NCBI GenBank assembly: GCA_964409385.1
Contig: CAYPCY010000001.1
Span: 106,546 to 170,545, forward strand
Direction of reading: 5' to 3'
From: an uncultured Methanosarcinales archaeon
Lineage (GTDB): Archaea; Nanobdellota; Nanobdellia; Woesearchaeales; CAYPCY01
Length of the DNA stretch: 64,000 bases
Made by a program: the position numbers and the translations under genes. The first letter of the stretch is position 1, and every line of letters starts with the position of its first letter. The notes beneath the pieces are model-generated. The model did no database searches. It worked only from the letters and a program-made list of their open reading frames with translations, and was not told where the DNA came from. Positions 2,010 through 44,195 of the stretch are shown in pieces.

Positions 2010-3914
2010 TCACAATATGTAACAATTAGTTTTTTTCTCTCCTCCAACTCTCCCTCCGAAAGAGTCTGAATATGCTAATTCTCCAAAATCTACTGTGATT
2101 TCCATCAAATTATTATTTTTTATTTTTTTAATTTCTTCATTTGTGAATCTATTTGTTAAATTTTCAGGAACTGCTAGTTTTTTGTTTGCATTTTCTGAAA
2201 TTTCTTTTATTTCATTAAGAATTCCTATGTTTTCTCCATAAATATCATCTATAACAACATATTCATCAGTAGTCCACAATAATGCTCGTTTTAAGTCTTT
2301 TCCTTCTGCAGTTGCGATTAATGGTATAACATTAGGATTATCTGCCATTTTTATTAGACAATCAGAGTTTGATCTTCTAAGATTCAAACAGGTTTCTCTT
2401 GGTTCATGTCCTATAAATGCGAAATCTCTCAAACTATATGCAGTTCTGAATGTTATTGAATTTGTTGTTATTGAACTATTATTTTGAAATGTTAAAACAT
2501 ATTCTAAATGTTCAATTGCGTCTTGAATATTTTTATTATTTCCTTCAATTATTTTTAAAATTTGACTAGAATTTTTCATCATATTAGTATAGAATTTACA
2601 ATTAATATTTTCTTTTTCGAGCAATTTTATCGCTTCGTCATAACTATCTTGAATTTTGTCTTCAATATTAATTTTTATGCCCTCAATATTCTTTTCTGAA
2701 AAATATTCTATTTCAGGAGTTATTGATCTATAACTGAATATATCTTCATTCATTAATAATGATGCAGTGAATCTTTTGGTTTCATCTAATTTTTTATTTT
2801 TTTCATATCCTGAAAATATATAATTTAAATCTTTTTCATTTATTGATATGGTTGTAATATTAAAATAATCTTTTACTATTTTACTAATTTCTTTTTCTAA
2901 CTTGTTAATATTTCCAATATTTTCTTTTTTTGAAAATTCATTTAGAAATTCTATAATTGTATCTCCATATATTGAGTGTAAGTCTCCCATTCTGTTAAAG
3001 AATTTGCTTTTTTTCTTTTTCCCTAAATAATATGTTTTTTCTAGAAGATTTTTATCTTTATCCAATGTTATTAGAACATTTACTGAATTATTCATATTTC
3101 TTCTTGATCCTCTTTCAATCAAATGCGTGAATATTTCTCTTGCTTTATTTGATAAATCACTTTCATGTTTTGCATAATTTTCTAAATTTTTAAATCTGAA
3201 TCCTCTTTTTATTCCTATAGGTAATTTTCCTATAAATTCTTTATTCTCAATATTTTCAAGAATTCCTGTAATCTTTTCTAGTTCCCAGTATGTATTCCAT
3301 CCTTTTTCTAAGGCAATTTCATAAATTTTTTGATATTCTCTCTTATAATTCATATTTTTTATTAATTCTAGACTTGTTGAATAATGACCGCCTCTAATTC
3401 CCGCCTTTGCTAATTCAATAATATGTTTTGGTTCTTTGTCAAAACTTTCGATAATATCATCTATATCGTAGGAATAATTTTTTTTGGAATTGAATAAGTC
3501 TCTTAACAAGCCCATATTTTTATCTTCTGTCGTATTTATCTTATCTAAAATTTCATGTAATACCCAAGAATATTTGGTAATTCTTTCAGTATATTTATTA
3601 TTTTTAAGAATTTCAGTTACTAAGTCTATCCTGTTTTCATCCACACTTAATAATTTATAGTCTGTTTTTACATTCCTTCCTAGATAGACAAGTCCTGTTC
3701 CTGCAAATACTATTGAAGACACTATTTCTGGATATTCTTTGATTGCTGAAGACGTTGCAATAGCCAAATTTAATCCTGCCAATCCAGACCATTTAATATC
3801 TTCTTTAAAATTATTCTTATGAATTTCAAAAAGTAAGTCTGTATGAGTTTTATTAGTTAAATTCTTACTTATCTTCTTAAGATTTCTTCCCGTTTCCAAT
3901 ATTTTTTCTAGCAT
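2010..3914 (-). CDS. hypothetical protein, 634 aa, no recognisable domain
   Basis: Long uninterrupted ORF with normal Lys/Asn/Ile-rich composition for this genome. No motif was recognised by eye. It is flanked by tRNA genes and by the inverted hairpin repeats. Confidence 0.55.
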   Translation of the reverse strand: MLEKILETGRNLKKISKNLTNKTHTDLLFEIHKNNFKEDIKWSGLAGLNLAIATSSAIKEYPEIVSSIVFAGTGLVYLGRNVKTDYKLLSVDENRIDLVTEILKNNKYTERITKYSWVLHEILDKINTTEDKNMGLLRDLFNSKKNYSYDIDDIIESFDKEPKHIIELAKAGIRGGHYSTSLELIKNMNYKREYQKIYEIALEKGWNTYWELEKITGILENIENKEFIGKLPIGIKRGFRFKNLENYAKHESDLSNKAREIFTHLIERGSRRNMNNSVNVLITLDKDKNLLEKTYYLGKKKKSKFFNRMGDLHSIYGDTIIEFLNEFSKKENIGNINKLEKEISKIVKDYFNITTISINEKDLNYIFSGYEKNKKLDETKRFTASLLMNEDIFSYRSITPEIEYFSEKNIEGIKINIEDKIQDSYDEAIKLLEKENINCKFYTNMMKNSSQILKIIEGNNKNIQDAIEHLEYVLTFQNNSSITTNSITFRTAYSLRDFAFIGHEPRETCLNLRRSNSDCLIKMADNPNVIPLIATAEGKDLKRALLWTTDEYVVIDDIYGENIGILNEIKEISENANKKLAVPENLTNRFTNEEIKKIKNNNLMEITVDFGELAYSDSFGGRVGGEKKTNCYIL

Positions 3915-3991
3915 TACGGGGTCTTAAATAATTTAATCTTATTTATATAGCTTATGAAAAGATTTATTTATGATAAATTCTTAATAATTCT

Positions 3992-4378
3992 ATGAAAATC
4001 TTAATAGTTGTTATAATTGTAACTTTACTTGCCCAATTAATCAAATTTTGTCATCATTATTTAATTAGTGGAAAGTTTCGGTTTGAAAAGTTTTTTGAGA
4101 CGGGAGGAATTCCTAGTTCTCATAGTTCTGCAATTTCTGCAATGAGCCTTGCAGTTTATTTCGAAGATGGTTTTTCAACATTATTTTTTGTTAGTTTAAT
4201 AATTGCAGTAATGGTTATTAGGGATTCTTTTGGAATTCGTTATGCTGTAGGTCAGAACACTAGAAGATTGAATGAATTAACTCATAATAATATTAACGAA
4301 ATTAGTGGTCATACTCCTTTCCAAGTTATTGTTGGTATCGTGCTTGGAATTATTGTTTCTTGGATTGCTTATGCATAA
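3992..4378 (+). CDS. divergent PAP2 family membrane protein (DUF212 / YuiD-like acid phosphatase-related)
   Basis: 128 aa with several TM helices and the family-diagnostic GGIPSSHSSAISA motif (GGMPSSHSA in DUF212). Confidence 0.7.
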   Translation: MKILIVVIIVTLLAQLIKFCHHYLISGKFRFEKFFETGGIPSSHSSAISAMSLAVYFEDGFSTLFFVSLIIAVMVIRDSFGIRYAVGQNTRRLNELTHNNINEISGHTPFQVIVGIVLGIIVSWIAYA

Positions 4379-4396
4379 TTACAAAATGTGTTTCAC

Positions 4397-4428
4397 AGAT
4401 TTTGAACTTCTGTATTCTTCGAATACAA
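4397..4428. repeat. inverted copy of the 1953..1984 hairpin element, 3' of the PAP2 gene
   Basis: agattttgaacttctgtattcttcgaatacaa; see the 1953..1984 feature. Confidence 0.6.
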
Positions 4429-4440
4429 TAAGTTATGAAA

Positions 4441-4516
4441 TTGTTTCAATTTCAAACTTTGGAATTTTAAAAAATTCCATAAGTTTCATAATTTCACTTT
4501 GTTAAATTCTGAACTT
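4441..4516. repeat. copy 1 of a ~60-nt palindrome-containing intergenic repeat (second copy at 44122..44195)
   Basis: caaactttggaattttaaaaaattccataagtttcataatttcactttgttaaattctgaactt. It contains a perfect 20-nt palindrome tggaattttaaaaaattcca. Near-identical sequence recurs in circularly permuted order at 44.1 kb. Confidence 0.65.
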
Positions 4517-4574
4517 AGAAATCTCTTTGAGATTTCGTAAGTTTTTTAAATTAATTCTTTATTTTCAATTTCAC

Positions 4575-4588
4575 GCCTCTGTAGCATA
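4575..4588 (+). repeat. 14-nt exact copy of the tRNA-Thr 5' end (GCCTCTGTAGCATA), 50 nt upstream of the gene
   Basis: Exact match to 4638..4651. Confidence 0.7.
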
Positions 4589-4637
4589 CACTGCAATCTA
4601 AGATTGCTGGACGCTCCACAGGCTCATAAAAACACTT

Positions 4638-4710
4638 GCCTCTGTAGCATAGTGGCTAATGCGTCAGCCTTGTAAGCTGAAGATCATGGGTTCAACTCCC
4701 ATCAGAGGCT
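4638..4710 (+). tRNA. tRNA-Thr (anticodon UGU), intronless
   Basis: GCCTCTG-TA-GCAT-AGTGGCTA-ATGC-G-TCAGC-CTTGTAA-GCTGA-AGATC-ATGGG-TTCAACT-CCCAT-CAGAGGC-T. Canonical cloverleaf. Confidence 0.85.
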
Positions 4711-4781
4711 TTTAATATTAACTGTTGAACGAAGTTGTTCATGATCACATTATGAACTCAAGAAATTCTAAATTTCGCAGA

Positions 4782-4800
4782 CAACTCCCATCAGAGGCTT
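4782..4800 (+). repeat. 19-nt exact direct repeat of the tRNA-Thr 3' end (CAACTCCCATCAGAGGCTT), 71 nt downstream of the gene
   Basis: Exact match to 4693..4711. It abuts the stop codon of the minus-strand membrane-protein gene. Confidence 0.8.
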
Positions 4801-5482
4801 ATCCTGTTTCATTAACAAATTGGGAGGTATTCATTGTATTATTTAATACTTCAATAAAATTCGCCACTCCCCAATCTGATTTAAAAACATCTATTAAGAA
4901 AAAGAAAAGAACATCATAAACTGCTGTCATTCCAAAAAGCAATATTAACATTAGTATTGAATGTCTAAACTTAAAAGGGTACAATCCAGTTAGTAAAGCT
5001 ATTATGAACAGTAAGATTGGAATTGATACAAACCAAATAAAGAATAAACTAAATGAGAAAAAAGGAGATAATATTCCTAGTAAAGTTCCCATAACAAAGT
5101 TTTTTCTCCAAGAATTATTAAATTCTGTAGTTGGAAATGCTAAATCTACAGTTATTTTTATTGTTAAAGAATAAATAATAATTTTAGGTATTATTATTAT
5201 TGAAAAAGGAAGTATTAATACTTGATAAGAAGGATTTTTTAATAAAACAAAAGCCAAAGCTCCAGCTAGAAATGCAAAGAACATTATGTAAAAATTATCA
5301 TAGAAAAAATCAAAAAATTTACTTTCAGACTTTGCAAGTTCGGACCTATTAATATTACGTAATGCCTTATCAACTTCTTTTTCAGAAAAATTACTTGATA
5401 GTAGAAAACTTCTTGTTTTACTTGGATGAAGACCTTCCTCTAAAGATTTCTTTGCTAAATCTTCACATTCTTTTAAACTCAT
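4799..5482 (-). CDS. hypothetical polytopic membrane protein with a soluble N-terminal region
   Basis: 227-aa ORF. The N-terminal ~65 aa are hydrophilic, followed by 5-6 hydrophobic helices. Confidence 0.5.
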   Translation of the reverse strand: MSLKECEDLAKKSLEEGLHPSKTRSFLLSSNFSEKEVDKALRNINRSELAKSESKFFDFFYDNFYIMFFAFLAGALAFVLLKNPSYQVLILPFSIIIIPKIIIYSLTIKITVDLAFPTTEFNNSWRKNFVMGTLLGILSPFFSFSLFFIWFVSIPILLFIIALLTGLYPFKFRHSILMLILLFGMTAVYDVLFFFLIDVFKSDWGVANFIEVLNNTMNTSQFVNETG

Positions 5483-5583: not shown

Positions 5584-6531
5584 ATGAAAAAAGGTCAAGT
5601 TGCTACAGAATTCTTAACTACTTACGGTTGGGCTATAATGCTTATTTTATTAGCAATGAGCGTATTGTTTTATTTTGGTTTCTTTGATATTGATGTTTTT
5701 ATTGAGGATTCTTGTTTTTTTGGTCAGAATTTTGGAGAGTGTGATGAATTTACTAGAGTTGGAGACAAAATTTTTATCAAATTAACTAATAATGGACTCC
5801 AAAACTTGACTTTTCATGCTTGTAATGTTTCTGTTCAGGATTGTGAGACTTCTTGTTCTTTTGATGAAGAAGATTTTGCTATTGAGAGAGTTTGGGAACC
5901 TTATACTCAAAAAGTGTTGAGTTTTTCCTGTCCTGCCTTGTTAGAAGATATAGATTCAAATATTGAATTAACATTCAGTCTTTCTGACAGTGATAGAATA
6001 CACTCTTTAAAAGGAAAACTTATTAGTTCTATGAAAAAACAAGATGATATTTATAACGAGAATGATATTCTAGGATGTACTACTCCTACCGCGTCTAACT
6101 ATGATCCTGAGGCTACTGTTGATGACGGTAGTTGTGAATATTTACCATTTATTAATTCATTCAGCATTAATGATGTTAGTGATCAGTTAGAGTTTTATTT
6201 TCCTGAAGGAACTCCTTTAAATTTTGAATTTGTTCTTTATGATCATTATCCTTCCGAGAATATGGAAGCTTGGTTTACTGGTCCTTTAGCTAATTTAGGA
6301 TCTCTTAATATTCCTAATATATGTATTTCTCATAGCGACTCTCTTAATACTTATTCTTGTGGTGGTGAATTTAATTGCCCAGGTGATGAACCTTGTCAAT
6401 TTACATTAACAATTTCTAACGTTCCTGGCTTGTCAGAAGGAGAATATGAGTATGATATAATGCTTACTCAACAACCTGGTACTACAGAATTTACTGATTT
6501 AGCTTTTAACATTAATTTTTATGACCCTTAG
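5584..6531 (+). CDS. archaeal type IV pilin-like protein with a class III (prepilin-type) signal peptide and a Cys-rich extracellular domain
   Basis: The N-terminus MKKGQVATEFLTTYGWAIMLILLAMSV matches the class III signal peptide pattern (KG-Q-x-x-x-E-F/Y-L followed by a hydrophobic helix). The mature part is Cys-rich and contains a GCTTPTASNYDPEATVDDGSCEY motif. It ends at a single TAG. Confidence 0.7.
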   Translation: MKKGQVATEFLTTYGWAIMLILLAMSVLFYFGFFDIDVFIEDSCFFGQNFGECDEFTRVGDKIFIKLTNNGLQNLTFHACNVSVQDCETSCSFDEEDFAIERVWEPYTQKVLSFSCPALLEDIDSNIELTFSLSDSDRIHSLKGKLISSMKKQDDIYNENDILGCTTPTASNYDPEATVDDGSCEYLPFINSFSINDVSDQLEFYFPEGTPLNFEFVLYDHYPSENMEAWFTGPLANLGSLNIPNICISHSDSLNTYSCGGEFNCPGDEPCQFTLTISNVPGLSEGEYEYDIMLTQQPGTTEFTDLAFNINFYDP

Positions 6532-7350
6532 GGTTGTACTGATTCTTCCGCTTGTAATTATGACCCTGCTGCTGAGATTGATGATAATAGTTGTGAGAGT
6601 ACGGATACTTATTATTTGGATTGGGATGGAGATAGTTTTGGAGATCCTTATGTTGGTGTTGAAAGTTGTGGTTATCCTGACTGTGATGGTCCTGAAAATG
6701 AAATTGGAAATCCAACTTGTTATTCTAATGCTCATGGAGATTGTGATGATACAACTTCATTAATTCATCCTAATATTATTGAAGATGGTTCTTATTGTTT
6801 TGATGATTTAGATAATGATTGTGATGGTTTTATTGATTTTTGCAGTATTAAGTGTGACGAGGATGACCTTCCTCCTGGAACTTCAATTTCTGGTTGTGGA
6901 ATTAAGGAATCTGCTTGTGATGATGGTCTTGATAATGATAATGATGGTAATATTGACTTGTGCGATTCTGACTGTGGTTGTGGATCTGCTATTAAGATAG
7001 GTTGTGAATGTTATAACTGTGATATAGAACCTTACGCTGTTGGTAGTGTTTATTGTTTTGATCCTGGATCTTCAATTAATCTAGAATTTTCTTTAATTAA
7101 TAGTGATACAGGTTCTCCATTAAGTAATTGTAACAGTGTAGAATTTCATGAGAATTTAGGAACTAATAATGTTTATTATAATTTGCTTTCTCCGGGTTGT
7201 ACTACAACTTTAAATCTTGATGAAGCATTAGGAAATCTTGGCTTGCTTGACATTCCAAGATTCAAAATAGACTATGCTTACTATGATTATAGTAGTGAGG
7301 CAACATGTGGTTTTGATATTTACAATACTGGAAATCCTGAATGTACTTAA
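6532..7350 (+). CDS. Cys/Asp-rich repeat protein carrying 'putative metal-binding motif'-type C-x-D-x-D-N-D-C-D-G repeats; same frame as 5584..6531, separated from it only by one TAG
   Basis: Translation directly after the TAG reads GCTDSSACNYDPAAEIDDNSCES (a repeat of the motif in the upstream ORF), then DCDGPENE...DCDDTTSL...DDLDNDCDGFIDFC...CDDGLDNDNDGNIDLCDSDCGCG. There is no ATG start; the ORF track used TTG at 6616. Confidence 0.55.
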   Translation, partial: GCTDSSACNYDPAAEIDDNSCESTDTYYLDWDGDSFGDPYVGVESCGYPDCDGPENEIGNPTCYSNAHGDCDDTTSLIHPNIIEDGSYCFDDLDNDCDGFIDFCSIKCDEDDLPPGTSISGCGIKESACDDGLDNDNDGNIDLCDSDCGCGSAIKIGCECYNCDIEPYAVGSVYCFDPGSSINLEFSLINSDTGSPLSNCNSVEFHENLGTNNVYYNLLSPGCTTTLNLDEALGNLGLLDIPRFKIDYAYYDYSSEATCGFDIYNTGNPECT

Positions 7351-10458: not shown

Positions 10459-11091
10459 ATGACCGTAATATTAATTTCTGGACCTCAAGCTTCCGGAAAG
10501 GGGACTCAAGCAGAACTTTTGGAGAAAAGACTTGGTTTTAAGCATGTTTCTATAGGTAAAATTTTAAGGGATAAAACTAAAAAAAATGATGTTTTAGGAA
10601 GACAAATTAAGGAATTAATTGATAAGGGCGAATTTGTTCCTAATGAAATAACTAATGAGATTGCATTAGAGTATATTAATAATAATGAGAAGATCATTCT
10701 TGATGGCTATCCTAGAAATAAGGAACAGGCAGAATTCTTGTCTAGAGAGTCAGATATTGATTTGATGATTGTTTTAGAAATTTTTGAGTCTTTAACTATT
10801 CAAAGAATTTCTAACAGGAGGGAATGTCCATCTTGTGGAAATGTTTATAATTTAATCACTAAACCTCCTAAAAATAATAAAACGTGCGATTGCGGGACTA
10901 ATTTGGTTTTAAGAAAGGACGATACACAAGAATATATTAAGAAAAGATTATATTCTTATCATAAAAGAACAGAACCTGTTATTAATATTTTTAAGAAGAG
11001 GAATAAGGTTGTATTCTTTGATGGGAGTAAAGATATTGAAGAAATTTATAAGGATGTTCTTTCTATTTTGAAGAAGAAGGAGCTCATTTAA
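10459..11091 (+). CDS. adk: adenylate kinase (long form with Zn-binding LID)
   Basis: P-loop GPQASGKGTQAELL, AMP-binding region, and LID with CPSCG...CDCG zinc knuckle. Confidence 0.9.
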   Translation: MTVILISGPQASGKGTQAELLEKRLGFKHVSIGKILRDKTKKNDVLGRQIKELIDKGEFVPNEITNEIALEYINNNEKIILDGYPRNKEQAEFLSRESDIDLMIVLEIFESLTIQRISNRRECPSCGNVYNLITKPPKNNKTCDCGTNLVLRKDDTQEYIKKRLYSYHKRTEPVINIFKKRNKVVFFDGSKDIEEIYKDVLSILKKKELI

Positions 11092-14000
11092 AGTTTGCTA
11101 GTTCTTTCTTTATTTTTTCTATTTCTTTATCGTCTTTTATTTTTCTCGCATTCTTTAAATCATTAGCTAAAGAATCAAGTCTTAATTTAGTTATGTCTTT
11201 TGTTTTCTCGGAATTTTTTAATTCTTCAATTTCATCTTCTAATGTTTTTTCTTTTTTAGTTTCTTCCTTTACAACTTTCTTTTCTTCAGTTAACACTTTC
11301 TTTTCTGCAGTCCATCCGTGTACTATTGAAAATTCTGTTTCTAATTGTTCTTTCTGTTCTGGAGTTAGTGTGTCTGTATCTATAGAAACTAATATTATTC
11401 CGTCTTTGGTGCTTATTTTATCTTTCATATGATCTAGTAAGTATATTGCCCTATCAAAACTTGTATTTTTCATTATGAACAAGAATGAATCAAAGAATAC
11501 TACTGGATTGTTTTCTTTTAATATATAGTCTACAAATGCCCTGTATATTTTATCAATATCTGTCGGACTTAATGTTTCTTTTCCTTGCTCTAGTGTTATC
11601 CAATAACTCTTATCTTGAGGAATGTCTTTAAGTAATAATTCAGGATTTTCTCTTGTGAATGAAAGTATTTTTCTTCCTTCCATATTACTCTTTACTAGTT
11701 TTAACGAAATTGTGTTTTTCTTTTCTTCAACAATATATAAATTTCTAGATCTTAATTTTCTTTCTAATAATCTAGGATTGAAAATTTCATGGCCTGTTTT
11801 CTTCAAATATTCTTCTCTTTCTTTCTTAGCCTGTGCTAATTCTTTAATTAATTCTTCATCTTCTACTAGTTCTAATGGTTTTTTCTTGACTGTTTTATTA
11901 ATTCCTTTCCATAATGCTTCAACTCTTGGAAGTACACTTTCTAAATAGATTTGTACCATGTTGAAATTTCCTGATTTTAATTTTTCAGTTGCTAGATTTA
12001 CTTCTATCCTAACATCGAAAACATCTACTTTTTCTTTTTCTAATTCTTCAAGTTGATACTCTAAATCTTCTATTATTGTATTATATTTTGAATAATTTGC
12101 TAATGCTTGATCATCTAACCTTTCTATATTATGTAGTAGTGGTCTGAAGTTTACAAAGTATGCTCTTCCTTTGTTATAATCCGCATTCTCTATCATTCCA
12201 GTTCCAGTTCCTGCTTTTATTAAACTCTGCATTATATCAATTCCATATTTTGTTTTTATTCTTTCTAGATCTCCTTCATCTTTAGTTTTCATTTGTATTT
12301 CTGTACTTATGTTTGCTTTTATTTCTCCTATAAAATCACTTAATACTTGACTTATTAGTACTAGACCAACTCCCCATTTCCTAAATTCTCTCGCTCCCCT
12401 TTCTATTTGTAAGAATCCTGCACCACTACCTCCAAATTTAGGTAGTAGTCTGTGAACTTCGTCATATATCATTAATAGTTTTAGTTCTGGACTTTCTGGT
12501 AGGTTTTCTCTGAAGACTTGTCTTATGGTGTTTGCTACGAATAAGTCTACATCTTTTTGACTTAACTTGTTAATTACAAAAACATGAATTTCTCCTGGCT
12601 TCATGAATTTTTTAATACTTACTTTTTGTCTTGGGTTTTCTACTACATGAACATTACCATTAAATGCTCTTGCTTCATTTCTTTTCATTTGGAATTTATG
12701 GTATAATTTCAGCATTGGTTTATTTTCTGATTTTCTTAAGAATCCTGTCCATTGTGCTGTTGGATCAAATACTATAACTGCAGTATTATGCTTTAGTGCT
12801 TCTTCTGCAATATCTTGTGCGGCTACTGTTTTTCCGCCTCCAGTAGCTCCTGCTACTATAGTGTGTGTTTTCAATTTTTCTAATTCTACAAATGTTCTAA
12901 TACTGGTTTCTGCAACATTTCCTAAGAATGCTACTTTTCCTTCTGGCTTTGGTAATGCACTATAGTCAATTTGTATTTTATACCTTGACTTTTTCCTTTT
13001 CCTATACTCATAAAATTCGAACATTCCAAAGTTTAATCCTAAGAATATTATTATTCCTAGAATCACCCATACTGGAATTATTCCTGCAATCCTATAATTA
13101 TACCAGTAATCAGATACTAATACTGTGGCTAGACTAGTAGCTGTCATGTTAAATCCTGTTCCTGAAGGATAAGTTGCTGTTCCTCTTAATACATACCTTC
13201 CTTTAATTAAATCTTCAGGAATTTTTAATGTCTTTATAACGGAGATTGTTGTCTCTATAGCTATTGCTTCTTCCGCTGCTGCTAAGACTTCAAGAGTAGA
13301 TTGGTCTACAAGTTCAAGCAGCAGCTGAACATCCACTCTCTTGGACATCCCTAGGTTATAGACATCCGCCTGAATTTTCAAGGTTTTTCCGGGGGGAATC
13401 CTATCCTGTAATGGAGTTATTTTCAGATCGAGAAGCTTCTCCCTCAATTCCAAAACCCGAATTTCTACAGGGATTGAATTAACGATTGCATCTGCAAGCA
13501 TTAATACAAGGTCTCCTTGATACATTCTTGGTTTGGTCTCGTAGGGTATTGCTATTCTGATCTCTACGTCTCCTTTTTCCCCAGGCGGGATTTCTATTAT
13601 TTGATTCACTACCGTTATGAAATCAGTGATTTCTCCTGATAGTTGCACAACTAGTGCTGCTGCTTCTTGTAGACCGTTTACTATTCCTACTTTCGTATCT
13701 GTTATTTCACCAGGGTAGAGTTGTCGGGATATCCTTGCGGTATCCACTGTAAACTCACTGGTTTTTTGCATATACTTTTGTAGGAGTTCTTCTATTGCTG
13801 TGAGCGTTAAATTTCCCATGTCTGCGACTTGGGTTGAAGTTGAAGCTGTTGAAGATGTTGATACTAATGTTAGAACTTGTGTTACATTTTGGAATGCAGC
13901 ACAATCTTCTGGACTATTTTGGAAACTTTCTCCAAGACTTATTGTACATATTCCGTCTCCTATTACAAATCCTGCCGCTGCATGTTCTGTTAGTACATAT

Positions 14001-17000
14001 GCTGAGAATCCTGTTGTGTTTGCAGTGATTTTATTATTGGTTTGGTCTAATGTTGTATTTATTGAAGTCCATCCTGATTGACAAGCATCATCTATTGATG
14101 ACCAGTTTGTACATTTTGCAACTACTAGTCTTGAAGGATCGTTAACTAGTGAAGTGTCATAATCGAATTCTATACTTATATTATTGGTTAAACTAATATT
14201 TCCTGCTATTCCTGCATGGTTTATTCCTGTTCCTGCTATTGAGAATGCTGTAGTGTTTAGTTTTTCTAGTATGAAATTTTCATTTAATTGTGAAGCATTT
14301 ACATTTATGAAATTCACTATGAAATTGTTGAAGTTGAAACTTGTTTTTGAGAATGTCCTGTCTGGAATTGTTGCGGTATAATCACCGTCAGAATCTAAGG
14401 TTATGTTTGTTCCTTTAGTATCTCCAGTCCATCTGTAAAGGGTTAATTCTGCATTTGATGAAGTTCCATTAAAGTCTTTTACACTTCCTGTTATACTTCT
14501 TGTATTGAAGACTTCAAATAATTCTGATGTGTTTCTTGTATTTCCTAAACTGTCTACTAAATTGTAGCTTATGTTATAATCGTTTTCTGTTGTTATTGTT
14601 AGTGTATTTGTTAGTAGACTTCCAGATACTGAATTTGTTACTTCCCTTTCAGTATATGGAGATACTGTCTCGTAAACTTTTGCATTTGTTGATGATCCTA
14701 TTCCTGTCTCGTCTGTTAAGTAGGTTTTTAGCGTTATTGATCCTGGCGTGAATGAGTCTGTATAGTTTACTATTGTTGGTCCAAAAACGTCAAGGTATGT
14801 TACTGTACTATAATCGTAAGCGTGACTAGTGTCATATACTGCTTTTAATGTGAAGTTTTTAGTTAAATCTCCTGTTGTTATTGTTGGCGCGGTGCATTGT
14901 ACCGTTTCTGAAGTTCCTGATGTTACTTGGCAAGTACTTCCGTCAATGTATACTTTGAAACTTTCCAAGGTTCCACTTCCTTCTGTTGCAGTGGTTATGT
15001 TTATTGTATCTCCTGATTTTATTCCTGTGGATGGTGAGATAGTTAATATTTTAGTGTGTGAAGTAACATTAATGTATGCTGCGAAGTTTTTATCATAACT
15101 CAAGTTTATTGCGTAAGTGTAAAAATTTTTTGTGTCTGGTGCTGTATAATTTATGCTTATTAGGTTGGTAGTATTACTTGATACTGTTGTATTAGTTGGT
15201 AATTCTAGGTTTGTTGTTATGTTAAGGAATAATTCTGTATTTCCAATATTTGTTATGTTTAGATATCCTATAACTCCTTGAACTTGACTTCCTACAGTTA
15301 CTCTATCATTCGTTAATGATGCATTGTATGATTTGTCTTCTGGTACTGTTACGGTTAGTAAGACTTGTTGGTCTGCATCGTTGCTTGTTATTTTTAATGA
15401 TCCTATGTATGTTCCTGCAGGGTAATGTTTTGGCACTGTAATATTTACATCCATGTATCTTGTTGATCCTGCTGGTATTTGTGTGTAGTAGATAGTGTCT
15501 ATTGTGAAATTATTACATACTGTTCCTGAAACACATGTTGCTAATACTCCAACAAGTGGAAATGTTCCAGTACTTTGTACTGTTAATTGTTTTGAGACTG
15601 TTTGTGAATGATTTATTGTGTATGTTAAAGTTGTAGTGTCTAGTGTTAATTCTGCAAGGCTTGATTCTGGCTGTTGTGCTAGTACGAATGATCTATTTCC
15701 GTTTGCGAAAGTGTCAAATGTTGATGTTATTCTTTTGTTCACCTTGTCTATTGTTGTTGTTAGTGCGTTCCAGTCTTGTAAACAGTTTTTGCCTGTTACA
15801 TTCCATGAATTACACTGGTATATTCTTAGGTCGTCTTCTATTGCTATATCGCTCATGAATGAGTTGTATTCTTTTATTACTGTTCCATTACTTGAGAAAT
15901 TATTTTCGAATGATATTCCTGTTATTGATCCTTGTAGTTGTCCTGCTGTTTCACTTCCTAATAAAGTATCTACTGTTAGAAAATTTGATGGTACTTTTCT
16001 AAAGTCTGCCTCGTTTATTGTAAAGTTAAATCCTTCTATTTGTATTTTTGTGATGTATTGTCTTTTTGGAATTGTGAAATTATAATGTCCTGTGGAGTTT
16101 GTTGAATTTTCTAGATAGAAGTTTTTTACAGTATTATTGATTGAAAAATTTGCTAGTAGTGGATTGTTGTTTTGGTCTATTAATTGTCCTTGGAATGTCC
16201 CGTTTTGTCTAACTTCAAAATATCCAGTTCCTGTTCCTGTATTATTTTCTGAATCTGTCGCGTATACTGTTACTTGGAATAGTCCTACTCCATCGTATAC
16301 TGTGGATGCTATTGTTCCTGTATAAATATCAGTTCCTGCTGCTGATAAGTCATCATTATGTGTTCCTCCCCCAAATAATTCTACACTGAAGTTTACTGTG
16401 GTTATTGCATTATTATCTGTTGCATTTACTGTAATGTTAATGTCTGTTCCTGAATCAACATCTGTTAGGTTTATTAGGTTTACTACTGGAACTGTTACAT
16501 CTTTGTAGAATACTGCATTTGTTGTTTCTTTAGTTACTGTAACGTCCGATCCTGAAATGGTATAATTAGCTATTATCTTTAGTGTGTGGTTTACTGCGTC
16601 TGTTGTTGATGGCGCGTAACATTCTAGAGTTGTATTGCTTGTAGTATCGTCAGTAGTGAATATTGTGCATTCAGTATTGTTTATGTATGCCTTATAAGTC
16701 GTATTTGTTGAAATATGATTTGTGTCTGTCCATGTTAGTTTTACTGTTGTATTTATTTGATCGCCTGAAACTACTTTTTCAGGAGCTTCTATTTTTAGAA
16801 TGTTTAGTATTAGTTTTAAGACTCTGAAATTGAAGTTTATTGTTTCATTAACTCCTGTTTCTGTATTATTCACAAATATTGTTCCATTGTAGAGTGTATT
16901 ATCATCTGGAGTTGTATAGTTTAGTTGTATACTTCTTGATTCTTGTTTTTGTATTGTTAATGAAGTGTTTAGATTGGTTGTTATTTGAGATACGTTTCCT

Positions 17001-20000
17001 GAAATATTAGTTGTGAAGTTTAATTCAGTATTTCCTAAATTGTTAATTATTAAATCTGTTATTGTTCCTGTTTCATTTGCTTGTCTGGAAACATTTAATT
17101 CATTAGTTGATAAATTCCATGAATTGTCTGTTAGCACATTTGCTGATGAACTTTCTGTCTTGTCATTAACATTATTTGCTCCTGTGAAGTTTATGTTGTA
17201 GGAGTAACTTCCTGGAGTTTGCCCTAGTGTTGTATTAAATCTTACGAATATTGTTTGGGTTTGTCCTTTTGTTATTTCTGTTAATGATGTTGTGAAGTCT
17301 AGACTGTTTGAGTAGACAGTATTATTTTTTGATAGTTCTATTGTTGTATTTTCTGGTGGTGAATCTACAGTTATTAATAATTGAGTATTATCATTTCCTA
17401 ATGCTGTTATTGTAAAGTTTGTAATGTTTAATTGTCCGTGAGTTACATTATATACTGTTGAGAAGTTGTTTATTGTGTAGTAATGGTTTTCTTCAATTAG
17501 TAGTGTTCCTGTGGTTGATGATTCCGAACCATTAGTTCCGTCAGTATTCGTAAAGTTTGCAATGAATCTTACTCCGTTAGTGTATAGTCCAACACTCTTT
17601 TTTGGAATTTCTATTGTTAAGTTTGTTTGTTTTGTTGCTCCTACACTAATATTCCCTAGGAAATTTCCTGTCACATTCCAGTCTTCAATAGTTCCTGTTA
17701 GATTAACATTATAAGCTGTTGCATATCCTGAATTTGTAATATTTACTGGGAATGTTATGTTCTCTCCCCATAAGTTAGTTACATTGTTTGCATTAACTTG
17801 TGATGATGCAAAGCTTAATGTTGTGTTTCCATGAACCATGAAGTATTCTGTGGTATTACCATTCTTTCCTGAAGTATCGTATACTTGGAAGTATACACTA
17901 TGATTTCCTGTCTTGTTTGTTTCATAGGTTAGATTGAATAATTCTGCATCTTCATATCCTGATGATTCCGGCCAGTTTACAAATTGTCCATAATAATTTG
18001 TTCCGTTAATTGTCCAGTTTCTTTCTGTTTCATTAACATTCACATCATCTTGGACTATTGCTTCAAAAGTTATATTCTTGCCTAGTTCAACATTACTTGT
18101 TTCTACCCCATTAACTAGTTTTTTGAAGCTAGTAATTACTGGTTCAGTATCTGTAACGTTGAAGAACATGAATGCAATATTTGAGGATGGAGATGCTGTA
18201 TTGTTTGAAATGTTTATTTGAACTCCTGATTCGTAATTCGATATATATCCATTAGGGTCTAAAACCCATACTTTTAGATTATAAGTTGAATTTTTATCTA
18301 CATAAACACTTGTTGGATTATATAATTCTAAAGATTCAGTATGATTTTCAGTAATACAATTAATAGAACTACATGAGTCCAAACCAGGAATATTATCATA
18401 TGAAATTGTGAAATTTAAAGGAATATTACCAATATTTTTTATTGTTAGATTTGCTAAGTTTCCTTCTTGATTTAGATTGAATACTTTTGATTGATTATAT
18501 GCTGGTGTGAAATACCATGTGGAGTTTGTAGGTACTTCTATTGATATATTTACTATTTGTGAATCTACATTATCAGTACTTACATTAATAATGCTCGAAT
18601 AATTTCCTGGACTTAAGAATTCTGGCAATGTAATATTTATTGGTATTACTTGCTTATTATTTTCTGTCAGGTTAAATATTGAATTGTTAAAACTTACCCA
18701 TGATTCGTTCAGTGTTTGTTCAATAAATGTTGTGTTCACATTTACTAATTTTGCATTTCCAACACTACTAATATTCATTAAATACTCAATGCTTGAGTTT
18801 CTTGATTGGACTGCTGAAATATTATGTGTTGTCATTAATGGATTAATTATTATTGTTATGTTTATGCTATCATTAAGTCCTTCAGTTGTTGTTATGTTAA
18901 TAAAGCCAGTATAAGTTCCATTAGTGAAATTTGTTACTGTAACATTAACTTCTAAGTCTGCGGCAAATCCGTCTTGTAATGGGTCCCATTCATTAAGGGT
19001 GGGATTCCAAGATGTAAAAGAACTGTTGAACTTAAACCAGGAACTATTAATTTCAGTAACATTTAGTTTTACATGATTTAAATCTTTATTTCCTGTACTG
19101 TTTACAATATAATTGAATATTTTGCTTGAACTAATATTAGTATTATGTAATAATGTGTGATTGTCTAGTTCCATTACTGGATTTCCAGTTATTGTTAGTG
19201 AAGAAGTTGTTATTATGTAAGCTTCAGTAGTGTCATTATTAGTCCAGTTAGCCCCCCATGTGAAAGTGTAGGAGAATACTTGAGCAGAATCACTTATTGT
19301 AATATTCATTCTAACAGTACAATTTTTATTAGGATATACGATTGAATCACAATTATCAAGTCTTTGTACAGAATCAATAATATTAGGAGTGTCTGAATCA
19401 TATATTAACGAATCATGCATTAATCCAAAACCAGTATTGTTTAATGTTGCATTAACTATGTAATTATAAGTACTTCCTGAAGAATAATCTGTTATTGTAA
19501 CGTCAGGAACAATTAATTCTGCTGTTGTTACAGCATCGTAAATTGTTAAGTTTACATTATTGCTTACTGTTGTATTTCTTGTATCATTTGCTGTGAAGTT
19601 TACTAGTCTTGTTCCGTAAAAGTTTGTGTCTGGTGTTATTGTTATTACTTTTGTAATATTATTTATGTTATAGCTTAAGTTAGTTGCGGGTGTTATAGTA
19701 TAATTAATATCATCCTCGTCCAAGTCTGAGAAATAATCTGATAGGGTGAGTGTTAAATCATTATTTTCAAACCAGGATTGGTTTGGTATTGTAGTATCTT
19801 GACTTGGTGGAGTGTTTAATACTGTAATATTCTGTTCTCTTATTACTGAAATGTTTTCTGTATCATTAGCGTATGTTCTTACTCTTATTGTATCATGAGC
19901 GTCTGTTATTTGAATAGTGTAATTGTTTCTTGAATAATCTGATCCAGTTCCTGTTATGTAAAGATTATCGATTGTGAATCCGTCTACTGTAGTATCTCCA

Positions 20001-23000
20001 GTAATTGCTGCATCATCATATTTGGTTATTGCCCAACCGTATGCTTTACCATCTCCGCCGCATTGATTATTTGCATTTTGTGAGATATTATATGTTTTGT
20101 AATACCAAACTCCATTATTTGAGGCTGATATATCTATATTTTCGACTAGTTTGTATTTATTATCACTGCATTTTACAAATACTCCGTCACAATCAGTAAT
20201 ATTGTTTATATTATCGTATGAAGCAGTGCATGAGTTTGATTCTTCTCCATGATCTTTTATATAAAAACTTAATTTAATATCATTATAGTCACTTATTGAA
20301 TTATTATTCCAGTAAAGAATATTATGATGATACTCATTAGGAGTACCAGCCATGTCCATTCTTAATTGGTAATTTCCTTTGAAAGGTTCTCCACAATATT
20401 TACCACCTGACTGACAACTTTCATTATCTACAATACCTACAACACCTGTATAATTAGATAAATTGCTAAATTGTGAATTCATCACTCCAGATTCAAATCC
20501 AGTACTGAATATTACATTCAACTCTTCAGAATCATTCAGATTATAAAACTTGAAAATGAAGTTGAAACTATCCCCATCTGCATCTGTAGTGTTTGCCGAA
20601 GCATTCAGTGTTTGTAATACGTAAATTGGTTCTGTCAGGTTTAATGTTGGCTGTTCTGGTGGTTTGTTCAGTATTGTTATTGTTTCATTCATCCAATCTC
20701 CCGAATAAGTATCGTTTGCCATGCATGAAAATGTCCAGTTTTGATACTTTTTGGCAATGTTTGCAGTTAGATTCTGAACATTAATTTCAACTGCTGTCGA
20801 GAATGAACTTCTACTTCCTGAACTGTAAGTTACTGATTCATTATACCATTTCCAATTATAAGTTATCAAATCACTATCTGGATCTGCACTCGTATTACAA
20901 TAACCTAATAAAATATCATCAGTATATGCTGTTGTTGGAGTTATTCTTACAGTTGTAACGTTTGGAATGTCTAACCATTTGAAACTTGTTGAGTTTTTCC
21001 AATAGCTCTCTACTGTAGTATTTGCATTACATGAGAAAGTCCAATTTTTGTGTATTGAAGAATCCGTAGTTACATTATTAATATTAACTTCTATTCCTTC
21101 AGTGTATGAACTTGTTGTTCCTGACTCGTTAAGAACACCATCCGCATACCATTTCCAAGAGTAGGATATGGGATTTCCTTCTGGTTCTGTTGCGTTACAG
21201 TATCCCTTAAGAATTTTTTGAGAATAAGTGGTTGGTATTATTTCTACTGTTCTAACTATTGGGAATGATGTGTTAAAGAAAGAACCCGCATCTCCTTCTT
21301 CCGCATTTCCAGATGCTACATATCCTCCAGCAGTATCAATAGTTCCTGTAAAACTATAATTATTTGAATAAGAAATCAGTATTCTTCCTCCTGCCCCTCC
21401 TCCTCCATCAAAACTTGTAGAACCACTAGCTCCTCCCTTAACACTAATAAGTCCAGCGCCCGTAATTAAACTAGTCTTAATACTTATTCCGCCACCACTT
21501 CCTCCGCCACCATAAGTTCCCAAAGAACTCCCACCACCGCTACAAGTAGTACTACTAAGATACGATGAACCTCCACCTATAGAAGTTATATTTCCTGTTA
21601 AATTTAGAGTATTTTTAACTTCTAATATTAATAAACCCCCTCCATCACCACCATCACCACTATTCTCGTCATTACAAGTTCCAAAACAAGATGATGCTCC
21701 TCCACTTCCTAAGAAAGTAACATTAGTTTCTGAACCGTAAGGTTCTCCCCTGTATGAGGTGGGACAACTCCATCTATTTCCTGAAAAATTTCCATATTCA
21801 CATCTTCCTCCAAACCCTCCAAAACCACCTCCTGACCCTCCTGAACACCTGCTGGGTAAACTATATTGTTCTCCTCCTCCATCATCAGATCCATTAAGCA
21901 CTCCTCTCCCATCATCCTCAATAGTACCTCCATAGTATCCTTTCCCATCAATATTTATTTCTCCTGAAGAAGTAATTGTAAGATTTTCTGCAGTAATATC
22001 TAACCAGTATGTCTTATTTCCATCTTTTGCTTCATTAATTGATAATCCATCATTTGAAGAATGAGTTAAACTTCCTGTTATTGTCAAGTCTTGTAGAACT
22101 TCTAATTTTCCATTATAAGTTATACTTCCATTCACTATTGCATCATTATTAACTATTAATGTTCCATTATTATTTACAGTTCCTGTAGATAGATTTAACG
22201 AATTAGTTGTTATAGTATTTCCTTCCTGAATATTTAATGTTCCACTACTTAATAATATACTATTAAGAGTAACATTGTCAGAGAGTGTTTCAGTAAGTCC
22301 ATCTTCAATTACCAGATTAGGCGACCTAAAACTCCCTTTAAGTCCATCACCCGCACTGCCCGGTCCTGTTCCTCCTGAAACATTTGTTTGCCCCGTAAAA
22401 CCCGAAATATTAACATCAAGATTAACTTTAATTCTTCCACCTCCACCACCACCACCATTATGACTACCTTCTATATCTTCACCCCCATCCCCTCCTACTG
22501 AAGTAATATTTCCTATACCTCCAAGAATACTGGTATTAATTGAAATTGTCCCTCCAGACCCACCTCCAGAACCATCAAACAGGTAGGAAGAAGTTCCTGT
22601 TAAACCTTCAGTTCCATCTGCTAAAATCTGTCCATTAATAGTTAAATTGTCAAGAATATTTAATATTACTAATCCTCCTCCAATTCCAGTATTATTTTCG
22701 CTTTGATTTCTTCCATCTCCAGAGCCACCTCCAGAACCTAAATCTGCAGGATTGGAAACACTTCCATAAGTAATCCCCTCATTATTTTCATCATAATATC
22801 CTTCTCCTCCTTGTCCACCATAACCACCACCACCACCACCTTCACCTATTGATTCTCCACCACCACCAAGACCATAACCAGTTCCATTATCTTCTGAATG
22901 ATCCCCTCCAGAATATCCCTTTCCAGAAACATTAATTAAACCTCCAGATTCAATTGTTAAGTTAGTAGCATTAATTTCTAGCCAATAATTTTTCACACTA

Positions 23001-26000
23001 TTAAAAGCATCTATTCTGTTCATATCTGAATTAGTTGAGTGAGTTAAACTACCACCAGACTGAACTATTAAATTATTAAATTCATAACTCCCATTCCATA
23101 TTTTTGCAGTAGTAATATAACAAGTAGTAAATTGATTTCCTGAATCACAACTGTTTTCATTAATAGTAATATTATTAGATTCGATAGAATAAACATCTTC
23201 AGAACCAATGCTTGCTGTGGAAACAACAGCCCACATTTCTGCTCTATCAGATTCTGAACTTGATAATTCTAAATTTTTATTTTGAAATAATAAGCTTATT
23301 TGCTCTGGTGATAATGCTCTTTTGTAGATCATTACTTCGTCTAATGTTCCGTTGAAGTAACTTCCTGTACTATTACTTCCTATTGTCATATTTTCTGAAG
23401 TTGGAATTAAATTTGATGAAGTTGTTGATCCTTGATATGTTCCATCTACATAAAGACTTAGGTTGGAATTTGTGAACGTTCCTGTTATTAAATGCCAGTT
23501 TTTATCGTTTAAATTTCCTGAATAAGTAACATTATCATATCCTAATCTTATTTCTCCTCCATTAATAGTGTTCAAATTCAAACTACTTACATCCTGAGAA
23601 GTTAGATTAATATTATCTATTGCTCGTCCATCACTAGAGCAAGGAAAATCGTCTTTTTGCGAAAATTTAATAGAGAAAGAAGAATTGGTTGTTCCTCCAC
23701 ATTGCTCAGTGATGTTATTTGTTAAATCAAAATCATAATTTGTATAAGTATTATCATTTGCAAGATCTGTTATTTTATACCAATAACTTCCATCACATGT
23801 AAAAAATACTCCGTCACAATTTGCAAACAATCCTGAATGACTAGAACAACTATCTTCTTCATCATCTCCAGAATCATCAATATGATAAAAATTAAAAGTT
23901 AAATTTGATATTCCTGCTAAAGAGAAGTTTGTTTTTACAGTATTATTAACTAGATTACTGTTTGATGTACTTCTTAATATTAGATGATTTGAACCTGCAT
24001 ATGGACTACCACAATCAGAATTAGAAGAAACATCAACATCACCATATGAATTGCTTGAACTTACAGTCCAATTTGATGAAATACTTCCTGATTCCCAGTC
24101 TTCAAAGAACTTTAGAGAATTAATTTCTTCTTTTCCAATCTTCATTATTACTCCTTCACTACTAGCGTTTATCCATGCTGATAAAGTAATGTCATTAGAT
24201 AAATTAGAAACATTCTCTAATTCAATATAATCATCAACTCCATCAAAAATATAAGCTCCTCCCTTGTAACCAGAAGAAGTCCAATTAGGACTATTTGATA
24301 AACTTCCACTTCCTAATGTTCCATTATTTCCATAGCTTGAATAATCCTTAACTATAGTTTCATAATCAGTATCGAAAGGATAATTAAGAACTGCTATTGA
24401 ATTACCATCAATTCTCCAGTCTGTAATGTTAGTGTACGCTAATCCTAAAGGATTATATGTTTCGTTAATATGAGATGTTAAATTATCAGTTGTAAAATTA
24501 TATGCTGATGTTGAATTCAGTAAGACAGTAAAATTTAATGCTTGTGTAACACTAATAATATTAGATAATGCGCTTGCTTCTTGGTCAGTATCTGTAGAAG
24601 TTACCATTACAGTCCAGTTCTCTTCAGTATTAATTTCTTCACCAATTATTTTTTCTAGAGAATGATTATTAAAACCTGCAAGGTATAACTCATTAATCTG
24701 ATCTGCAGACAATATTCTATCATAAACACTTATTTCATCTATACTTCCATTCCATTCAGATGATCCAATATTATCATCTGATCTTCCTATTTGAATATTA
24801 TTTTGAGGAACAGATAATCCACTTGATGTTGTTTTCGAACTCATATATTCTTTATTTCCATTTAGAAATAATGATCCAATTCCAGTATTATTTTTTAGTG
24901 TTAATGCAAAATGATACCACGTTCCTGCAGATAACGGTGTTGTTGAAAATGTAGTTATAGAACCTGTACCATCCTCTAATCTCATTGATGCCTTAATTTT
25001 TACTATTCCTGTATTATTCAATATTTGCAAATACCATCCTTTAAGTAGTGATGTGTTATATTGTTCTATGATAAAATTATCAGATGCTCCGACACTACCT
25101 TCATAATTCATCCAACCAACAATAGTTAATTCTGTTGTCAGATTTAAACTTTCATTATATGGTATTGTTAAGTAATCATCAATTCCATCAAAAGAATAAC
25201 ATCCTCCCACTTTACAATTATCAGTCCATACTGGTCCAGTCACTGTTCCATCATTATCATAAGTGGAATAATCCTTAATACTACTTGAAGAATTAGTGTC
25301 GAATGGCATGTTCAATACGGCTATTGAAGTTCCATTAATTCTCCAATCTGTAATATTAATTATTGACTTATCATTAGTATGTGAAGAATTTATTTTTACA
25401 GTAAGATTATCAACACTAGTATTATAACTACTTGAAGAATTCAAGAATACACTATTAACAACAGGAATATTTAATTTTACTTGTACAGTATTACTTAATA
25501 ATTGAGCTTCATTCTCTGTATCTGTAGCAGTTAGCATAACACTCCAATTCTCTTCAGCCCTAGTTTCATTATGAACTATCTTCTCTAAAGAATGATTATT
25601 AAAGCCAGCAAGATAAATCTCATTAATTTGATCAGTGGTTAATACTCTATTAAAAAATAAGAATTTGTCTATCAAACCTTCAAACTGATATCCTATTTTT
25701 ACATCTGCTATAGGATTTATAGTGGCATCATTACCATCACAATACTCAAAAGAAATAGTAGTTAGTTGACCATCAAAATATACGTTATTACCATCACATC
25801 CTACTGTAATATGTGGTAATTCAGTAGTTACTGCTATAAAATGCCAATCAGTATCATTATTTGTTGAATGTACTGAATACTGCCCACCAACTCCAGTACC
25901 ATCGTAAGAATCAATAACTATATTATCAGTTTCAATTTGTATACTATATCTGTCTGAACTTCCTGTATAGTGATACCATGCATATCCTACATTTGCTTCA

Positions 26001-44132: not shown

Positions 44133-44195
44133 AATTTCACTTCGTTAAATTCTGAACTTTGGAATTCTAAAAAATTCCATGAGTTTCATTCAAAC
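44122..44195. repeat. copy 2 of the ~60-nt palindrome-containing repeat (see 4441..4516), intergenic within the glycogen operon
   Basis: tttcataatttcacttcgttaaattctgaactttggaattctaaaaaattccatgagtttcat. Same unit as at 4.45 kb, with 3-4 substitutions and permuted order. Confidence 0.65.

Follow-up and report, generated by a model that had tools for sequence, protein, structure and literature searches.

Partial copies of tRNA ends beside the tRNA-Thr and tRNA-Asn genes of a Woesearchaeota-like archaeon: probable footprints of small insertions

The window considered here, that is, the whole 64-kb stretch of contig CAYPCY010000001.1 that was analysed, carries genes for tRNA-Thr(UGU), tRNA-Asn(GUU) and tRNA-Ile(GAU), and the first two of these stand next to partial copies of their own ends. 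With ARAGORN a single tRNA gene was detected; the Ile and Asn genes, both of which bear introns and lie on the minus strand, were added by Rfam. The following sections describe the copies, the promoters and the state of the locus in related lineages, and then weigh how the copies arose, how the two tRNAs may now be expressed and how the arrangement compares with known systems.

Copies of tRNA ends, relatives and promoters

The tRNA-Thr gene is flanked on both sides (Table 1). Upstream, an exact copy of its positions 1-14 recurs at the start of the gene itself (4638-4651), with 49 nt between the two occurrences, and downstream, after 70 nt, there is an exact 19-nt copy of a block that spans T-loop C56 through the discriminator (position 73) plus one further base; the final two bases of this 3' copy overlap the stop codon of open reading frame (ORF) 227. 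Both copies had been described in a first-pass annotation of this DNA, and the description holds: the longest direct match between tRNA-Thr and its flank was equalled in none of 2000 flank shuffles on either side, and the 19-mer found no match in 100 dinucleotide shuffles even when three mismatches were tolerated. Because ten contigs of independent assemblies (JGI, ENA and Logan, from different samples) are 100% identical over 4379-4800, an assembly artefact is excluded.

What that annotation missed, though it was correct about the Thr repeats, is that tRNA-Asn shows a matching 5' arrangement, and that the 5' copy stands at the ancestral +1. The Asn 5' copy was equalled in 4 of 2000 shuffles, and the spacer behind it makes up the rest of a 69-nt leader. 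The Thr and Asn 5' repeats both start exactly at the tRNA +1 and finish in the D-loop. The tRNA-Ile gene, unlike tRNA-Asn, has no copy of its 5' end upstream.

Table 1. Positions of the tRNA genes, the copies of their ends, the promoters and other features of the window
Feature	Position	Strand	Remarks
tRNA-Thr(UGU), intact gene	4638-4710	plus	ARAGORN; Rfam RF00005, 74.5 bits
Thr 5' copy, GCCTCTGTAGCATA	4575-4588	plus	exact; tRNA-Thr positions 1-14
Thr 5' spacer, inserted, 49 nt	4589-4637	plus	completes the 63-nt leader
3' spacer, 70 nt, from tRNA-Thr 3' end to its copy	4712-4781	plus	from the sequence
Thr 3' copy, CAACTCCCATCAGAGGCTT, 19 nt	4782-4800	plus	exact; equals 4693-4711
TATA box TTTTTTAAAT, ancestral tRNA-Thr promoter	4542-4551	plus	-33 to -24 from the Thr 5' copy
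tRNA-Asn(GUU), intact gene	1715-1827	minus	Rfam, 55 bits; 41-nt canonical intron
Asn 5' copy, GCCTCCGTAGCAAA	1883-1896	minus	tRNA start is GCCTCCGTAGCTTA; first 11 nt identical
Asn 5' spacer, inserted, 55 nt	1828-1882	minus	rest of the 69-nt leader
TATA box TTTTATAAAA, ancestral tRNA-Asn promoter	1920-1929	minus	-33 to -24 from the Asn 5' copy
tRNA-Ile(GAU)	1547-1634	minus	Rfam; canonical-position intron
tRNA-Ile TATA region	1659-1668	minus
tRNA-Ile trailer, TTAACACTCGATTCTACCAGACT	1520-1546	minus	inverted D-arm copy at 1524-1534
ORF227	4799-5482	minus
ORF634	2010-3914	minus
DUF212 gene	3992-4378
Inverted repeat of the DUF212 cassette	1940-1998, 4383-4441		59 nt, 80%
GAACTT-hairpin repeats	4404-4434, 4452-4486, 4511-4543, 44154-44186
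GAACTT-hairpin repeat	1947-1977	minus
Pilin-like gene, two ORFs	5584-6531, 6616-7350
Giant ORF	11084-26740	minus	5218 aa

Six related lineages were recovered through neighbouring proteins and one DNA scan (Table 2); a metagenome scan with the tRNA core returned a single locus, and a scan of genome contigs with the DUF212 protein returned only cyanobacteria and other bacteria, at identities of at most 40%. The comparison of sister genomes that the first-pass annotation had proposed could thereby be run, and it reveals clear indel polymorphism at tRNAs that are identical or nearly so; the Thr, Asn and Ile tRNAs of L091, for instance, are identical to those of the window. Because the relatives show this polymorphism, the repeats are insertions and not a conserved processing or promoter element.

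Table 2. Presence and absence of the inserts in the window and in related lineages
Lineage	Protein or tRNA identity	Thr 5' insert	Asn 5' insert	Thr 3' copy
Window		yes (copy exact)	yes	yes
L091	DUF212 87%	no	no	no
L092	DUF212 79%	yes (copy 12/14)	not covered	no
L106 (L107 same sequence)	DUF212 at least 90% to that of L091	yes (copy 11/14)	no	contig ends
L093	tRNA-Thr with 1 difference	no	not covered	contig ends
L099	glutamate dehydrogenase 87%	not covered	yes (contig starts within spacer)	not covered
L103	glutamate dehydrogenase 64%	no	not covered	no copy in ~130 nt downstream

The Thr 5' spacer is homologous in L092 and L106 (none of 2000 shuffles reached the alignment), and the copy in front of it has decayed in both, with changes at two of 14 positions in L092 (U1, U5) and three of 14 in L106 (G6, U11, U14). 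When differences between the window and L106 are polarised by L092, nearly all of the changes fall on the L106 branch; the window therefore sits on a short branch, and its perfect 5' copy needs no special explanation. The Thr and Asn spacers, in turn, are unrelated (533 of 2000 shuffles give a score at least as high) and occur in different sets of lineages, so that the two 5' insertions are independent events; a single insertion that spread between Thr and Asn, which was also considered, is ruled out by the same lack of relationship. The 3' copy is found in the window lineage only and is missing at the homologous place in both L092 and L091.

The promoters indicate where the two displaced genes once began. 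In seven of eight ordinary tRNAs of this clade, a putative TATA element composed of A and T only occupies -33/-34 to -24/-25 from +1, and this fixed layout is found at tRNA-Ile in the window, at tRNA-Asn and tRNA-Ile in L091, at tRNA-Ile in L099, at tRNA-Thr in L093, and at tRNA-Thr and tRNA-Gly in L103; every one of these tRNAs starts with G, and CCA is encoded by none. AT-only 8-mers begin at -34 to -31 before each ordinary tRNA with the fixed layout and before each 5' copy (Thr and Asn in the window, and those of L092 and L106), and no TATA-like 8-mer stands at the equivalent distance from the intact tRNA-Thr (4638) or tRNA-Asn of the window. Because an ancestral-type TATA lies at the fixed distance from each of the copies, the copy sits where the gene originally began, with 63 nt (Thr) or 69 nt (Asn) wedged in behind it.

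The promoters upstream of the copies are, furthermore, orthologous to promoters that abut tRNAs in insert-free relatives. In L093 and L103 a TATA box with the position and motif of the Thr type stands directly before the intact tRNA-Thr, and in L092 and L106 it stands before the decayed copies; the Asn-type promoter, with an identical downstream spacing of 19 nt, is adjacent in L091 and L106 to the intact tRNA-Asn. The TATA of tRNA-Thr in L091 lies 7 nt farther off than usual, and ATTAGCACAATC, the last ~12 nt ahead of this gene, is similar to the spacer's 3' end (ATTAACACTC in L106); to judge from the sequence, this hints at an imprecise secondary deletion of the insert, although it is only suggestive. 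In Nanoarchaeum equitans, promoters 26-27 nt upstream give rise to leaderless tRNAs (PMC10100707), and the fixed TATA position in this clade indicates a similar, putatively leaderless, layout of tRNA transcription.

Two observations on the neighbouring tRNAs may be recorded separately. The first concerns the trailer of the window tRNA-Ile, which includes an 11-nt inverted copy of the gene's own D-arm as well as 9 nt complementary to the 3' strand of the anticodon stem, a match that 16 of 2000 shuffles reach; L091 and L099 share its first ~27 nt without change and the flank diverges beyond them, and its pairing is predicted to break the cloverleaf in the minimum-energy fold. The second is that tRNA introns turn over among close relatives. 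The tRNA-Thr of L106 (624-720) is interrupted at 37/38 by a 23-nt intron not seen in the other lineages, and the tRNA-Ile of L099 (253-359) has a 33-nt intron at 31/32, instead of the 14-nt intron at 37/38 of the window tRNA-Ile. At 341-994 of L099, a free-standing LAGLIDADG endonuclease gene is inserted between tRNA-Ile and a DUF4870 gene.

Origin of the copies

The copies are probably the footprints of three separate small integration-type insertions at the termini of two tRNA genes. Each insertion would have introduced a stretch of unrelated DNA, 49-70 nt long, along with a second copy of 11-19 nt from the tRNA terminus (14 nt at the Thr 5' end, 11-14 nt at the Asn 5' end and 19 nt at the Thr 3' end). 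Every repeat is bounded by a tRNA loop, either the D- or the T-loop, on one side and by the mature tRNA end on the other, which by analogy is the geometry of an attachment (att) identity block that regenerates an intact tRNA; in addition, the repeat boundaries are sharp, with similarity stopping at the repeat edges. Among archaeal att sites, lengths go down to 8-14 bp, with a median of 17 bp in Thaumarchaeota and 14 nt in SNJ2; the T stem-loop and the tRNA 3' end are standard locations for them, pTN3-like integrases use the 5' part of tRNA genes in a rarer, 5'-side mode of integration, and att sites are re-used by successive elements (PMC8371274, PMC6563490). The first-pass annotation had remarked that the 5'-end duplication is unusual and that some archaeal integrases target the 5' half, and this agrees with the pTN3-like mode.

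The surroundings of the repeats differ from one side to the other. On the 5' side the native promoter adjoins the copy, as expected of an att scar, and on the 3' side the sequence past the copy only weakly matches the L091 trailer. The site is also an insertion hotspot: relative to L091, the ORF227 block is inserted exactly at the 3' end of tRNA-Thr, ORF634 is confined to one lineage, L099 carries a LAGLIDADG gene, and the tRNA introns vary between close relatives. Most likely, tRNA-targeting mobile DNA integrated here and was afterwards lost nearly wholly, or was very small from the outset. No ORF lies within the 49-, 55- or 70-nt DNA between the repeats, and neither ORF634 nor ORF227 matches a recombinase, a PHROGs phage-protein family or a PDB sequence; because no recombinase remains, these are scars and not active elements, as had been concluded at first from the lack of an integrase.

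Several points nevertheless weigh against this origin. No integrase, transposase or Cas1 is encoded in the 64-kb window. The predicted attP junctions (ACACTT|GCCTCTGTAGCATA|CACTG for Thr 5', CTATTAA|GCCTCCGTAGC|AAACC for Asn 5' and CGCAGA|CAACTCCCATCAGAGGCTT|TTAAT for Thr 3') and the spacer interiors have no match in a viral contig collection, a search that covered exact matches only in a collection where DPANN elements are poorly sampled. That three independent events should each leave less than 100 nt between intact repeats would be unusual for decayed elements, and published decayed integrated elements hold 9-23 kb between their repeats (PMC9897764). The first ~35 nt of the 3' spacer (including TTGAACGAAGTTGTTCA, 4724-4740) are orthologous to the trailer of L092, which has no 3' copy; a simple 3' integration would put foreign DNA in this proximal part of the spacer, unless the event predates the split and L092 lost its copy. 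Moreover, no older, decayed copy of the tRNA 3' end is found at the far end of the ORF227 block.

Overall, the attL/attR scar proposed for the Thr repeats in the first-pass annotation gains from the indel polymorphism, the positions of the repeats and their lengths of 14-19 nt, and it is strained by the tiny inserts, by the lack of any match to mobile DNA and by the native-looking proximal 3' spacer.

The main rival, to which we would give a small but real chance, is local break repair or template switching without a mobile element, in which filler DNA and a short templated copy of the tRNA terminus are laid down in one step. Such repair would account for inserts that are tiny (49-70 nt) and related neither to each other nor to anything mobile, for duplications of varying length (11, 14 and 19 nt), and for the native-looking proximal 3' spacer, which belongs to a trailer ~60 nt shorter than that of L092, as though it had been remodelled. 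Each 5' leader also contains an imperfect inverted copy of the tRNA 5' end (GCTCCACAGGC as against GCTACAGAGGC; CTACGG), as the tRNA-Ile trailer does of its own D-arm over 11 nt, and L099 has a homing-endonuclease gene within the tRNA cluster. However, the inverted matches are individually not significant, the filler is without a detectable template in the window or the related loci, and random repair does not predict that all three duplications should be bounded exactly by a mature end and a loop.

A lesser chance falls to a variant in which the spacers are complete miniature insertions, placed recurrently at exact tRNA termini of this clade, with 11-19 nt duplicated each time, either by mobilisation in trans or by an integrase- or casposase-like activity on short DNA. 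If this were true, every insertion at a 5' end would give the tRNA a long leader headed by a decoy of that very end, and the cell would need a 5'-maturation activity that leaderless Nanoarchaeota are thought able to forgo.

It is also unlikely that the copies are selected cis-acting RNA elements, that is, decoy 5' and 3' ends that control the folding, processing or amount of the mature tRNA. The exact 5' copy of the window would be able, in the minimum-energy fold, to capture the acceptor 3' strand and thereby vie with the true 5' end, which the decayed copy of L092 cannot do, and the outer copies are able to pair with each other around the entire tRNA-Thr. Selection for such effects would fit the retention of the Thr leader in three diverged lineages and the two compensatory pairs in its apical hairpin. 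However, the copies are wholly absent in lineages with identical or nearly identical tRNAs (L091, L093), the 5' copies of L092 and L106 decay at about the rate of the neighbouring spacer, and polarisation by L092 leaves the window merely on a short branch. The 3' copy, for its part, occurs in one lineage only, and the 3' spacer has no significant structure (z-score -1.1). A search with Rfam at E values up to 10 found only tRNAs in these regions, with no C/D-box or other known RNA in leader or trailer. The possibility raised at the outset, that the copies are leader or trailer elements for processing, is thus not borne out as an origin, since relatives show indels, yet the 5' insert does now act as a leader.

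We consider it very unlikely that the tRNA gene (or its first 63-69 nt, or its last 89 nt) was duplicated in tandem and that the extra copy decayed to a pseudo-tRNA. The leaders are loosely tRNA-shaped, with a closing stem formed by the 5' copy, one or two hairpins and a spacer of 13-16 nt, and the period on the 3' side is 89 nt, equal to a tRNA of 73 nt plus 16 nt. However, the spacers retain no similarity to the interior of the tRNA, and 4712-4781 retains none to 4801-4870 (2067, 2499 and 1289 of 3000 shuffles are as good), and uniform decay cannot leave a perfect 14 or 19 nt beside fully randomised sequence.

Hardly credible is a last explanation, in which the outer copies are exons: either the 63- and 89-nt stretches are non-canonical introns, or the copies are parts of a split tRNA that the splicing endonuclease and RtcB would join. 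Deletion of one repeat plus spacer does yield an identical mature sequence, the promoter is located at the copy, and intron-bearing tRNAs, RtcB and Archease are present with introns that move between close relatives. However, an intact tRNA gene exists, and no bulge-helix-bulge is found in any tRNA-regenerating splice register, although the test does detect the real introns of Ile and Asn (H 3/4, outer helices of 7 and 5 bp). Acceptor or D stems would be faulty with the altered copies of L092 (U1, U5) and L106 (G6, U11, U14), and the D-stem would be disrupted by positions 12-13 of the Asn copy.

Present expression and genomic surroundings

To judge from sequence and comparison, each 5' insertion left a partial copy at the ancestral +1 and moved the intact tRNA, now promoterless, 63 nt (Thr) or 69 nt (Asn) downstream. 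Because the intact genes have no promoter of their own, the Thr and Asn tRNAs must be made as leadered precursors. Both leaders are predicted to fold on themselves, and the folds are better than those of shuffled sequences, with z-scores of -3.5 for the window Thr leader, -2.0 for the L092 Thr leader and -2.8 for the window Asn leader. In the Thr leader the 5' copy pairs with 4613-4623 around an apical hairpin (4593-4607), and 14 A-rich nucleotides (4624-4637) stay unpaired ahead of the tRNA; the Asn leader has two hairpins, the CTACGG segment paired with the copy and a 16-nt linker. The predicted structure of the Thr leader appears to be conserved across three lineages, with 86% of cells paired as compared with 24-47% when the partners were slid and with two compensatory pairs, both in the apical hairpin; as there are three sequences and 61 of 500 shuffles reach the observed values, this is suggestive only. 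Transcription would start at the copy and yield a precursor headed by a copy of the tRNA's own 5' end; the leader hairpin would form first, and the copy would then pair with the complementary segment of the leader and be kept off the acceptor 3' strand. An RNase P-type activity would finally have to cut at -1/+1, at the unpaired linker of 14-16 nt. In the 64-kb window and the short related loci, the only DNA covered, Rfam finds no RNase P RNA. With leaderless-type promoters and leaders of 63 and 69 nt side by side, the question of whether an RNase P-type activity is retained becomes directly testable at a defined locus.

The window is part of a cellular archaeal chromosome with 31% G+C, and encodes several aminoacyl-tRNA synthetases, RtcB and Archease, and glycogen enzymes. 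Among named sequences, its glutamate dehydrogenase is closest to a Candidatus Woesearchaeota protein, and the host is a Woesearchaeota-like DPANN archaeon. No further tRNAs occur in ~10 kb beyond the left end of the window or in ~1 kb past its right end (on a 7.9-kb contig).

Between the Asn and Thr genes lies a 2.4-kb segment (2010-4378) that the first-pass annotation had singled out for comparison with related genomes and with viral and plasmid databases. It is not cargo of the repeats and consists of a DUF212 cassette, inverted between lineages, and a lineage-specific ORF. The DUF212 gene belongs to a cassette flanked by a 59-nt inverted repeat, and its orientation in the window, L092 and L106 is opposite to that in L091, despite an identity of at least 90% between the proteins of L091 and L106; the segment seems to invert recurrently. 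In several assemblies of the window population, contigs break at the 59-nt inverted repeat. Inversion breakpoints inside the tRNA 5' ends were considered as a source of the copies and were rejected, as in either orientation of the cassette Asn keeps its own type of promoter, TTTTATAAAATAAG, and Thr likewise keeps TTTTTAAA.

ORF634 is present in the window population only and is absent from this place in L091 and L106, the two relatives that are covered. It belongs to a family of ~14 clusters of uncharacterised proteins of 600-860 aa, without Pfam, PHROGs or PDB-sequence match, that share a conserved C-terminal block (FIG..P..TCL..NSDC...DDIYG...YSDS). Given this lack of matches, the idea that ORF634 is a hidden recombinase is unsupported.

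Some further features of the window deserve mention. A small repeat family consists of GAACTT, a hairpin of 7-8 bp whose sequence varies from copy to copy, and (A/G)TAAGTT; three members stand in tandem between DUF212 and the tRNA-Thr promoter, where L092 and L106 have none, and the third of these is terminator-like, with its hairpin followed by a T-run. Downstream, a pilin-like gene, whose product begins with a class III signal peptide (MKKGQVATEF...), is divided into two ORFs in the window and in contig L002, and it forms a single ORF of 588 aa in contigs L001 and L003 of the same population, which may represent real variation or a frameshift. The giant ORF listed in Table 1 contains internal repeats, like the giant surface proteins typical of DPANN genomes.

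Comparison with known systems

Insertion scars at tRNA termini are, as a general kind, already known. New features of the present locus are the paired 5'-side events at adjacent tRNAs, the very small size of the inserts and the displacement of tRNAs from leaderless-type promoters. The locus therefore offers a comparatively dated example of how insertions at tRNA termini, including the rare 5'-side case, arise, persist and vanish in an uncultivated DPANN lineage. It also calls for some caution in annotation, as two of the three tRNAs escaped ARAGORN and the prediction of tRNAs and of integration sites can be misled by partial tRNA copies.

The closest likeness is to the attL/attR scars left by tyrosine recombinases. 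Shared features are a terminal tRNA repeat beside an intact gene, running from loop to end over 14-19 nt, with empty sites in relatives, a native promoter that stays with the 5' partial copy and a site that is a hotspot. The window differs in that 49-70 nt, and not kilobases, separate the repeats, in that neither an integrase nor any other element gene is left, and in its native-looking proximal 3' spacer. In 5' integration of the pTN3 type, the tRNA is expressed from the promoter of the element's integrase, whereas the tRNAs of the window would be read through from the old promoter.

Casposons, which are Cas1 transposons, produce 14-bp duplications at the 3' regions of tRNA genes, leave remnants behind and re-use tRNA sites (PMC4779613). 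Their scars thus resemble the window in the 14-bp duplication of a tRNA target and in remnants that outlast the element. They differ in that the spacer ends of the window are not terminal inverted repeats, no Cas1 or transposase is encoded in the window, the length of the duplication varies (11-14, 14 and 19 nt), and two of the three events took place at a 5' end.

A further parallel is offered by cis-mobilizable elements (CIMEs), which consist of short DNA between two att copies without recombination genes, much as short DNA lies between candidate att copies in the window. Known CIMEs are kilobase-sized and derive from identifiable integrative and conjugative elements (ICEs) or integrative mobilizable elements (IMEs), and we know of no CIME-like element of ~50-70 nt.

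In its promoters, finally, this clade resembles Nanoarchaeum equitans, which has leaderless tRNAs and no RNase P: the TATA element is fixed at -33 to -24 from +1, and the tRNAs start with G (PMC10100707). Unlike in that organism, however, the Thr and Asn tRNAs of the window have gained leaders of 63 and 69 nt, and the tRNA-Thr of L091 has ~7 extra nt. Because two tRNAs carry leaders and a third, in L091, carries these extra nucleotides, some 5'-processing activity must exist in this lineage.

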